Notes: generated by a model not told the origin, from the sequence alone. 64,000 nucleotides of DNA from an uncultured Acidobacteriota bacterium (GCA_963756595.1 CAVWOZ010000017.1:26597-90596), one strand, 5' to 3'. Positions 55,567 through 64,000 are shown, counted from the first letter of the stretch. Numbers and translations are program-made.

Positions 55567-58500
55567 TCAGTCGGTCTCTTCCAGCTCCGGATCGTCCAGC
55601 TCGGCGGTCAACAAGGATTCGCCGATCGCGGCGGTGAAGCCGGCGATGGTCGGCGACTTGAACAAGGCCTGCAGCGGCAGCTCCACCCCGAGCGAGTCGT
55701 TGACCCGCGCCAGAACTTTGGTGGCGAGCAGCGAGTGACCGCCCAGGTCCCAGAAGTTGTGGTGAATTCCCACCCGGTCGACCCCGAGCACCTCGGCCCA
55801 GATCTCCGCCACCATCTCCTCGAGCGGGGTGCGGGGGGCCACGTACTCCTCGCCCGTCTCCAGCCCCTGGCCATCCGGTGCGGGGAGGGCGTTGCGGTCG
55901 ACCTTGCCCGAGGCCGCCATCGGCAGGCGCTCGAGCAGCATGAAGTGGCTGGGCACCATGTAAGCCGGCAGCCGACTTTCGAGGAAGCCCTTCAGCTCAA
56001 GGGTGCCGTCCGCCCCCTCCAGCGGGACGATGTAGGCGACCAGGCGCTTCATTCCGGCGATCTCGGGCGCCGCCACCACCGCCTCGCGGACGGCCGGATG
56101 CTCGGCGAGCACCGCCTCGATCTCCCCGAGCTCGATGCGGAAGCCGCGCACCTTGACCTGGAGGTCGACGCGGCCGAGGAACTCGACGTTGCCGTCCGGC
56201 AGGTAGCGGGCGAGGTCGCCGCTGCGGTAGAGGCGCCCGCCGGCCTCGCCGCCCAAGTGATCGGGGACGAAGCGGTCGGCGGTCAAGTCGGGGCGATGGA
56301 GATAGCCGCGGGCCATCTGCGCGCCACTGAGGTAGATCTCGCCCGGGATGCCGGGCGGCACCGGCTGCCGGAAGCCGTCGAGGATGTAGAGCAGGGTGTT
56401 GAGGATCGTCCGCCCCACCGGCGGCAGCGGCGGCCAATCGCCGGGATCGGCGGCGAGGCGATACGCCGTCACCACGTGCAGTTCCGAAGGCCCGTACTGG
56501 TTTTCGAGCGAAGCCCCGAGCCGGCGGAACCAGCCGACGACCGTCTCCGACGACTGCAGCTGCTCCCCCGCCGAGATCACCTCGCGCAGGTGCGGCAGCA
56601 TGGCCCCCCGCCGCTCGGCCTCCTCGGCGAGATGGCTCAAGGCGACGAAGGGGAGGAAGAGGCGCCCGATCCGCTCGCGCTCGAGGATCGCGAGCAGGGC
56701 GCGCGGATCGCGCCGGTCGTCGTCCGCGATCAGCACCAGCGTCCCCCCCGCCCCCCAGGTCGAGAACATCTCCTGGAAACAGACGTCGAAGCTCAGCGGC
56801 GAGAACTGCAGCGTCCGCGCCTCGGCGCCAGTCAGCCGGCCGAGGTGGAAGGCGATCAGGTTGGCGAGCGCCGCGTGCGTCATCGCGATCCCCTTCGGCC
56901 GCCCGGTCGACCCCGAGGTGTAGATGACGTAGGCGAGGTCCTGCATGTCGACCCCGGCGTCGAGCGGCTCCGCGGGCTCGGCCGCGAGGGCGGCGTCGAG
57001 CGTCTCGAGGGTCAGCAGCTCCCCCGCGAAGTCGGGGAAGAGGCCGAACAGATTCTCCTGCGACAGCAGCACCGGCGGGGCGGAGTCGGCGAGCATGAAG
57101 GCCAGCCGGTCGGCCGGGTAGCTCGGGTCGAGGGGGACGAAGACCCCACCCGCCTTGAAGATGCCGAGCAGGGCGACCGGCATGGTGAGGGCGCGCTCGA
57201 GGCAGACCGCGACGGCGACGCCGGGGCCGACGCCGAGGCGCCGCAGCCGGTGGGCCAGCCGGTTGGAACGCGCGTCGACCTCGGCATAGGTCAGCTCCTC
57301 GCCGCGGAAAGAGAGCGCCGGATGGCCGGGGACGCGCCGCGCCATCGCCGTGAAGCGCTGGCCTTGAGTGAGCTGGAGGACCGGCGCCGCGAGGTCGTTC
57401 CACTCGGCGAGGAGCTGCGCGCGGCCCCCTTCCGCCAGCAGCGGCAGCTCCCAGAGCCGCCGGGCGGGGTCGTGGAGGGCGCCGGTGAGCAGCGTCTCGA
57501 GCTGCGCTACCAGGCGCGAGACCGTCGTCGCGTCGAACAGGTCGGAGCTGTACTCGACCGCCCCCTCGAGGCCGTTTCCCTGATCCCCCATCGCCAGCAG
57601 GAGATCGAACTTGGCGGTGCCGCGCTCCGGCAGGAAGGGGGTCAGCCGCACGCCCGGCAGGGAGAAGGCGAGGGAGTTGTTCTGCAGCACGAACATCACC
57701 TGGAAGAGCGGCGAGTGGCTGAGGTTGCGCTCCGGATCCAGCGCCTCCACCAGCTTCTCGAAGGGCACGTCCTGGTGCGCGTACCCCTCGAGCGCCACGT
57801 CGCGCACGCGCGCCACCAGCTCGCCGAACCCCGGGTTGCCGGCCAGGCTCGCGCGCAGCACCAGGGTGTTGACGAAGAAGCCGATCAGCCCCTCGATCTC
57901 GGTCCGCGTGCGGCCGGCGATCGGCGTGCCGACGTTGATCTCCGCCTGGTTGGTGTAGCGGCAGAGGAGCGCCTGGAAGGCGGACATCAGGACGATGAAC
58001 GGGGTCCCCCCCATCTCCCGCGCGGCGCCCTCGATGCGCGCCACCAGGGTGCGCGGCAGCCGCCACATCACCGCGCCGCCGCGATAGCTCTGCACCGGCG
58101 GGCGCGGGCGGTCGGTCGGCAGGTCGAGCACCGCCGAGGCGGCGCCGAGCCGGCCGCGCCAGTAGTCGATCTCAGTCTCCAGAGCCTCGTCGCGCAGCCA
58201 GCCGCGCTGCCAGAGGGCATAGTCGGCGTACTGCACCGGCAGCTCCGGCAGGCGCGGCGCGACCCCCGCGGAGAAGGCGGCGTAGAGGGCCGCCAGCTCG
58301 CGCATCAGGACCCCCATCGACCAGCCGTCGGCGACGATGTGGTGGAGGGAGAGGAAGAGCGCGTGCTCGGCCGCCGCGATCCTGAGCAAGGCGAAGCGCG
58401 CCACCGGCCCGCGCGCGAGGTCGAAGGGGCGCGCCGCCTCCGCCGCCGCCAGGCGCTCGGCCTCGCTACGCCGGAGCGCCTCTGGGAGCGCCGCCAGGTC

Positions 58501-64000: not shown

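Follow-up and report, generated by a model that had tools for sequence, protein, structure and literature searches.

Structure of the NRPS Gene

The window analyzed in this work is a 64,000-nucleotide stretch of DNA from an uncultured Acidobacteriota bacterium (GCA_963756595.1, CAVWOZ010000017.1:26597-90596). Its GC content is high (0.64–0.76), so that long open frames are present on both strands; real genes were distinguished from spurious frames by their third-position GC (GC3). The end of the window is occupied by geneA, which is read on the minus strand as 2810 codons without a stop (63999..55570, with the stop codon at 55567–55569; GC3 0.95). Its N-terminus is truncated by the window end. 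The plus-strand reading at the same coordinates was rejected as antisense noise.

GeneA is a multimodular (C-A-T)n NRPS. Three AMP-binding, three AMP-binding_C, three PP-binding and two full Condensation domains were revealed with Pfam, and the set of NRPS motifs HHxxxDG, SGSTGxPKG, YGPSE, GRxDxQVK and GGHSL is complete. As judged by the core motifs, the domain order is (C end)-A-T-C-A-T-C-A-T, followed by an acidic docking tail. The gene and its domains are as follows:

55570..63999, minus strand: geneA, NRPS (open frame, GC3, Pfam and core motifs)
63769..63999, minus strand: module 1 C domain, C-terminal 77 residues, the remainder lying beyond the window (59% aa and 72% nt identity to the stretch preceding A3)
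62278..63768, minus strand: module 1 A domain (A1), predicted proline-type, code DVQLIAHVAK (Pfam, code, pocket match to TycB1/GrsB1)
62008..62277, minus strand: module 1 T domain (T1; 56% aa identity to T2, 50% to T3)
60556..62007, minus strand: module 2 C domain, LCL-like, with HHIVSDG (Pfam, motifs)
59083..60555, minus strand: module 2 A domain, with an unrelated pocket, code DAWLAGHVVK as read by alignment (47–48% aa identity to A1 and A3)
58813..59082, minus strand: module 2 T domain (T2; Pfam, motifs)
57361..58812, minus strand: module 3 C domain (N-terminal half nearest to the module 2 C domain, last ~77 residues nearest to the module 1 C end)
55876..57360, minus strand: module 3 A domain (A3), predicted proline-type, code DVQLIAQVVK (Pfam, code, orthologues)
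55570..55875, minus strand: module 3 T domain (T3) with the acidic C-terminal docking tail …LLTAELDDPELEETD (tail kept in four of four orthologues)

An initial annotation of this region had described the first and third modules as near-identical Pro-type copies. The two peptides quoted there are indeed present in geneA (63741–63637 and 57327–57223, minus strand), as are both FDVCFQE motifs (63195–63175 and 56790–56770, minus strand).

Neighboring Genes of the Cluster

Further NRPS genes, a transporter gene and a dioxygenase gene are located in the same part of the window:

49003..55551, minus strand: geneB, NRPS, C-A-T-C-A-T (Pfam; orthologue in contig L081, see below)
42386..49003, minus strand: geneC, NRPS, C-A-T-C-A-T, with a GTGA start/stop overlap (Pfam)
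37688..42340, minus strand: geneD, NRPS, C-A-T-C (Pfam)
36241–37629, minus strand: MFS transporter, downstream of the NRPS genes
31026–32042, plus strand: TauD/TfdA-family dioxygenase, further downstream of the NRPS genes

The dioxygenase may act as a tailoring hydroxylase of the cluster, and the MFS transporter as its exporter.

Several domains encoded by these genes deviate from the usual pattern. The first C domain of geneB (54112–55551, minus strand) starts with DIYPLSASQQGMLFH. Its best matches among solved structures are of the DCL class (McyB, 2.5e-111; bacitracin synthase 3; PvdL; SrfA-C; TycB1), and no E domain was found with Pfam in module 3, upstream of this domain. The domain may be of the dual E/C type, in which case the second proline would be a D-residue. 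The C-terminal ~465 residues of geneD (37688–39090, minus strand) form a C-like domain without HHxxxDG, the equivalent place being …HITGQYMAADINSW…. No thioesterase was seen among the genes scanned; a function of the terminal C-like domain of geneD in non-canonical release, or as a scaffold, is conceivable. In the A domain of geneC module 1 (45950–47476, minus strand) NSYASTE is found for NxYGPTE (A5) and NGRVDQ for NGKVDR, the A10 lysine being replaced by arginine. The L081 orthologue (80% identity) has kept both changes; this A domain is unusual and possibly altered in function, but maintained by selection. Given the DCL-class C domain with no upstream E domain, the terminal C-like domain devoid of the His motif and the A10 Lys-to-Arg change, the product of the cluster may be unusual.

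Predicted Specificity of the First and Third Modules

The codes extracted by alignment are DVQLIAHVAK for A1 and DVQLIAQVVK for A3, which both agree with the proline type DVQ(L/F/Y)(I/V)A(H/Q)V(V/A)K containing Asp235 and Lys517; position 278, which was placed via the TycB1/GrsB1 alignment, is less certain than the others. When the segment of module 1 from A4 to beyond A5 was compared with solved structures, the best matches were TycB1 (9bfd_B, 96 bits) and GrsB1 (8p5o_A, 94 bits), and the next match to this pocket segment was CmnG with only 58 bits. The motifs SFDVC(F/Y)QE, ITAGEQL and NHYGPSETHV are common to the A1 segment, TycB1 and GrsB1.

Among the proline codes in the literature are DVQYIAHVVK, DVQYVAHVVK and DVQFVSQVMK, the last with Gln at position 322 (PMC9113097), as well as DVQYIAHVTK and DVQFIAHVxK (PMC2866473). 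Position 322 is occupied by either His or Gln, even in close A3 orthologues. A literature search for the exact codes DVQLIAHV, DVQLIAQV and DAWLAGHV gave no match, and the code DAWLAGHVVK of module 2, labelled Leu-type in the initial annotation, was matched to nothing.

Taken together, the codes and the pocket matches to TycB1 and GrsB1 support the earlier assignment of A1 and A3 as proline-type domains, and we infer a Pro-X-Pro segment in the product of geneA. The identity of the FDVCFQE motif in the two modules, which had been cited in favor of a recent origin, is real but has another meaning. FDV[CS]xQE was found in every sampled relative, including those from other phyla with only ~52% identity, and TycB1 and GrsB1 contain FDVCYQE. 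Being family-wide, the motif is a mark of specificity and not of recency. Similarly, the code DVQLIA[H/Q]V[V/A]K is common to the sampled proline-type domains, which are 50–59% identical across phyla.

Similarity Between the Modules

All eight modules of the window were cut at identical motif-anchored points before pairwise comparison. A1 and A3 are the closest pair among the eight A domains, with 68% aa and 74% nt identity; the remaining pairs are 43–50% identical in aa (58% for B2-D1) and 59–68% in nt. Accordingly, the earlier statement that they are highly similar holds in the sense that no other pair in the window is closer, but at this level they are far from near-identical. In blastn, 55644–57585 aligned with 62046–63999 with 74.3% identity over 1979 nt, while the next-best module pairs reached 66–69%. 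Even the best 30-codon windows of modules 1 and 3 are 90% (aa) and 87% (nt) identical, and their longest exact common run is 28 nt, compared with 29 nt for modules 1 and 2. The order and spacing of the two modules are alike, with a register of 6405–6414 nt.

The similarity is unevenly distributed over the module. The last 77 residues of the C domains are 59% aa and 72% nt identical in modules 1 and 3, which exceeds the level of the other pairs (43–51% aa) but is only moderate, although these ends had been included among the highly similar parts. For the T domains, which had also been included, the claim does not hold: modules 1 and 3 are 50% identical in aa, below the 56% of modules 1 and 2, and in individual windows T1 is 72/60% identical to T2 vs. 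52/38% to T3. As originally described, the intervening module is quite different, its A domain being 47–48% identical in aa to A1 and A3, and it is unrelated to the two proline modules.

We also considered the suggestion that a block of two modules was duplicated. Such a duplication predicts a module similar to module 2 at position i+3 or i-1. The module at i+3 is the first module of geneB (B1); its A domain is 47% identical to that of module 2, which is the background level, and its C domain belongs to a different class. Position i-1 lies beyond the window. The two-module block was rejected on the basis of the unlike downstream module.

Extent of the Shared Region

Sliding-window comparison of module 1 with module 3 and its orthologues revealed 60–90% aa identity from the end of the C domain to approximately residue 500, i.e., roughly 30 residues past motif A8 (GRVDLQVK). 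Beyond this point, through the remaining Asub and the T domain, the identity of module 1 to the module 3 clade falls to 36–55%, a level like that between modules 1 and 2, while the module 3 orthologues remain 64–95% identical among themselves. Over Asub-T as a whole, modules 1 and 3 are 49% identical in aa and modules 1 and 2 are 55% identical. The 3′ switch of relatedness is clear, at residues ~500–513; at the other side, the window ends 77 residues before A1. The shared unit was located as follows:

62485..63999, minus strand: module 1 copy, C end and A core to ~30 residues past A8 (sliding windows)
56092..57591, minus strand: module 3 copy, C end and A core to just past A8 (sliding windows, blastn)

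Upstream of the shared unit, the N-terminal half of the module 3 C domain is nearest to the module 2 C domain (56–73%). Downstream of it, T1 is similar to T2, both being followed by an LCL-type C domain in cis, and T3 is similar to the T domain and docking tail of the orthologues. Thus, the similarity of modules 1 and 3 does not cover the whole C-A-T module, with Asub past A8 and the T domain being at background.

Synonymous Sites

Third positions in these genes are nearly all G or C, so that even unrelated modules already share the codon at 60–71% of identical residues (pS 0.40–0.47). With A1 and A3 this value is 70.7% (pS 0.37); for A3 and its L082 orthologue it is 84.5% (pS 0.21). The synonymous sites of A1 and A3 are saturated, at the background of unrelated modules. 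Alignment of the modules at the DNA level therefore gives a twofold answer: the 74% nt identity of modules 1 and 3 is above that of all other pairs, as the proposed duplication would suggest, but there is no synonymous excess, and DNA identity does not exceed the expectation from the proteins.

Gene-conversion tracts between A1 and A3 were sought in synonymous windows of 40 codons. No window was above the background maximum, and the mean for A1-A3 was 0.71 against a background of 0.66 ± 0.12. Thus, modules 1 and 3 contain no recent conversion tract.

Orthologues and Phylogeny of the Proline Modules

In a protein search with module 1, the four top matches were all nearer to module 3 than to module 1. 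These proteins (P0012, P0001, P0010 and P0002) are 90, 78, 71, and 68% identical to A3, respectively, and 62–68% identical to A1. All four terminate in a T domain and an acidic tail, …FKSPTIAGFTAAIGESLL…, like that of module 3, and can therefore be regarded as positional equivalents of module 3. P0001 is encoded on a 27.5-kb JGI contig (L081), with the geneB and geneC orthologues (2186 and 2207 aa, respectively) located downstream of it. The orthologues in L081 are 66% (geneB) and 80% (geneC) identical to the window genes.

In the NJ tree (403 ungapped columns, 500 bootstraps) A3 grouped with the four orthologues to the exclusion of A1 with 100% bootstrap support, A1 joined this clade with 100%, and A1 and A3 were sisters in 0% of the replicates. 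When 131 DVQ-type A domains of fetched proteins were included, the A3 clade excluded A1 with 99.5% support and the six-member clade was retained with 100%. A1 is equidistant from all five members of the A3 clade (66–68%) and at most 59% identical to the other DVQ-type domains (n = 131).

The trees indicate that modules 1 and 3 descend from one specific common ancestor, which bears out the shared ancestry originally proposed for them. They do not bear out its recency: since the A3 orthologues form a clade without A1, the split of the two modules is old and would predate the divergence of five lineages with a terminal proline module. The comparison with orthologous clusters points in the same direction as the synonymous sites.

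None of the orthologous contigs yielded a module 1 orthologue, since they all end at the third A domain or shortly upstream of it. Contig breaks occur in four of four assemblies with A3 orthologues, inside the proline A domain or at most ~260 codons upstream of it (L081, 1–12; L082, 1–2; L083, 1–2; P0002, N-terminus). They could be due to ordinary fragmentation of NRPS genes or to closer intragenic repeats in those genomes.

In the all-library search of representatives, ranked on summed score and dominated by giant synthetases, no geneA orthologue was found and the best match to A1 was 58% identical. A genome scan with module 2 revealed no orthologous cluster, its matches being at most 62% identical and all from Thermoanaerobaculia MAGs, and a metagenome scan with A1 gave only L083 (66%), a member of the A3 clade. 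GeneA was absent from the collections searched, and an exact look-up of geneB was likewise without a match. Among the best 120 matches of the protein search no protein exceeded 1162 aa, although the highest scores would be expected for multi-module synthetases, and long proteins are apparently under-reported there; given this and the dominance of giant synthetases in the representative search, the lack of any nearer A1 relative carries little weight. The nearest relatives are fragments from metagenome assemblies of the Acidobacteriota/Thermoanaerobaculia type.

Origin of the Two Proline Modules

Modules 1 and 3 are probably old proline-loading paralogues that arose by an ancient copying of the C end and A core between modules. 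In the ancestral assembly line, a C-end/A-core unit of one module would have been copied into a second module, through either partial-module duplication or intragenic recombination. The copying would precede the divergence of at least five lineages with a terminal proline module and would have been followed by long independent divergence under purifying selection, while the remaining Asub and the T domain would not share the history of the A core.

The main competitor is an ancient duplication of the complete C-A-T module followed by divergence or replacement of Asub-T, as module 3 became the terminal module with the docking tail and module 1 stayed internal. Growth of NRPSs is commonly assumed to proceed via whole-module duplication, the two modules are alike in order, spacing and register, and their T domains sort by the downstream partner, as would be expected in this case. 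Because of differing partner constraints, Asub-T could have diverged faster after such a duplication, which would account for the fall of identity past A8 without a recombination breakpoint. On the other hand, Asub-T of modules 1 and 3 is no more similar than that of modules 1 and 2, and the abrupt change at residues ~500–513 suits a breakpoint better than gradual divergence. A shared C end and A core with Asub-T at background corresponds to the pattern described by Baunach et al. (2021) and favors an old C-end/A-core copy over whole-module duplication, which we consider unlikely but not negligible. An argument against the copy is that the exchanges studied by these authors usually leave the native C-A linker in place; in geneA, the similarity reaches the end of the C domain. 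The identities, the boundary, the saturation of synonymous sites, the tree topology and the proline-type pocket are observed, while the mechanism (recombination or whole-module duplication with later replacement of Asub-T) is inferred.

The remaining explanations carry much less weight. The similarity of A1 and A3 might have no specific shared origin at all and merely reflect membership in the proline-activating family within the same high-GC genome; the common code of the sampled proline-type domains and their identity across phyla would fit this. Such an origin is improbable in view of the gap between the identity of A1 to the A3 clade and to other DVQ-type domains, the full bootstrap support of the six-member clade, and the extension of the likeness to the end of the C domain, outside the pocket. 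Still less credible, to the point of near-exclusion, is the reading that one module, or a block of two, was recently duplicated in tandem within this genome, with copies still near-identical in DNA. Modules 1 and 3 are the closest pair in the window and share FDVCFQE, but they differ by about one-third of residues (68% aa, 74% nt), their synonymous sites are at background, their longest exact run is 28 nt, the external orthologues of A3 are far nearer to A3 than to A1, T and most of Asub are not common to both, B1 is unlike module 2, and FDV[CS]xQE is family-wide. Of these results, those on synonymous sites and on the orthologues refute a recent duplication.

Equally hard to sustain is an assembly artefact, in which Pro-X-Pro would have arisen from misjoined or expanded repeats. 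In its favor, each of the four orthologous contigs is interrupted within the third A domain or shortly before it, so that this region is hard to assemble in short-read metagenomes. However, the 2810-codon frame of geneA is intact, with regular domain order and core motifs, and the two copies have diverged at one base in four. With such divergence and no exact run longer than 28 nt, collapse in assembly is unlikely, and the risk for modules 1 and 3, raised in the initial annotation, appears to be low.

Thus, the two proline modules are a case of ordinary assembly-line evolution rather than of recent duplication. Beyond annotation, where the claims of recent duplication and assembly risk can be removed, this has little significance; it is a further example of a known rule, by which A-core (C-A) units are common to different NRPS modules and Asub-T stays with each module. 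The module map and the predicted Pro-X-Pro segment may aid peptide mining in Acidobacteriota, the cluster being uncharacterised. It is conceivable, although we hold this only tentatively, that the pair records a natural and long-maintained exchange of a unit consisting of the C-terminal C lobe and the A core, with a breakpoint just past A8. If so, this breakpoint would be a naturally proven fusion site at which proline specificity can be exchanged between internal and terminal modules.

Comparison With Known Systems

It is routine for one synthetase to contain several paralogous A domains with the same specificity. Natural recombination in NRPSs mostly swaps the A core, with the native Asub-T retained, and exchanges that reach into the C domain (C-A didomain) are the exception and not the rule (Baunach et al., 2021, Mol Biol Evol, PMC8097286). 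Like these exchange units, the shared stretch of geneA ends at the hinge between the A core and Asub (A8), and Asub-T of each module would be native. Unlike them, the event proposed for geneA is old (68% aa identity, saturated synonymous sites), and the similarity continues upstream across the C-A linker, reaching the end of the C domain.

TycB1 (9bfd_B) and GrsB1 (8p5o_A) resemble A1 and A3 in FDVC(F/Y)QE … ITAGEQL … NHYGPSETHV and in the code DVQLIA(H/Q)V(A/V)K, but are distant in overall sequence (E = 1e-116 for the whole domain). Position 322 of A3 is Gln and not His, as in the published proline code DVQFVSQVMK (PMC9113097).

The L081 cluster (JGI contig Ga0395523_00002298) is organized like that of the window, with a terminal proline module (A domain 78% identical) and docking tail, and then the geneB and geneC orthologues. 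Only 112 residues precede the A domain on this contig, and modules 1 and 2 are off the contig.

Another protein, P0161, which is similar to locus L007 from a Thermoanaerobaculia MAG, contains a proline-type A domain, a DAW-type A domain and a second proline-type A domain, as geneA does. The Pro-X-Pro order spans residues ~1880–4800 of P0161 and positions 5749–13905 of L007. Its two proline domains are mutual closest relatives (75%) and at most 61% identical to others. Unlike geneA, its cluster is not orthologous and its domains are only 55–60% identical to A1 and A3, the pair being independent or separately homogenised. Pro-X-Pro may be a recurrent motif in the peptides of the Thermoanaerobaculia-type group.
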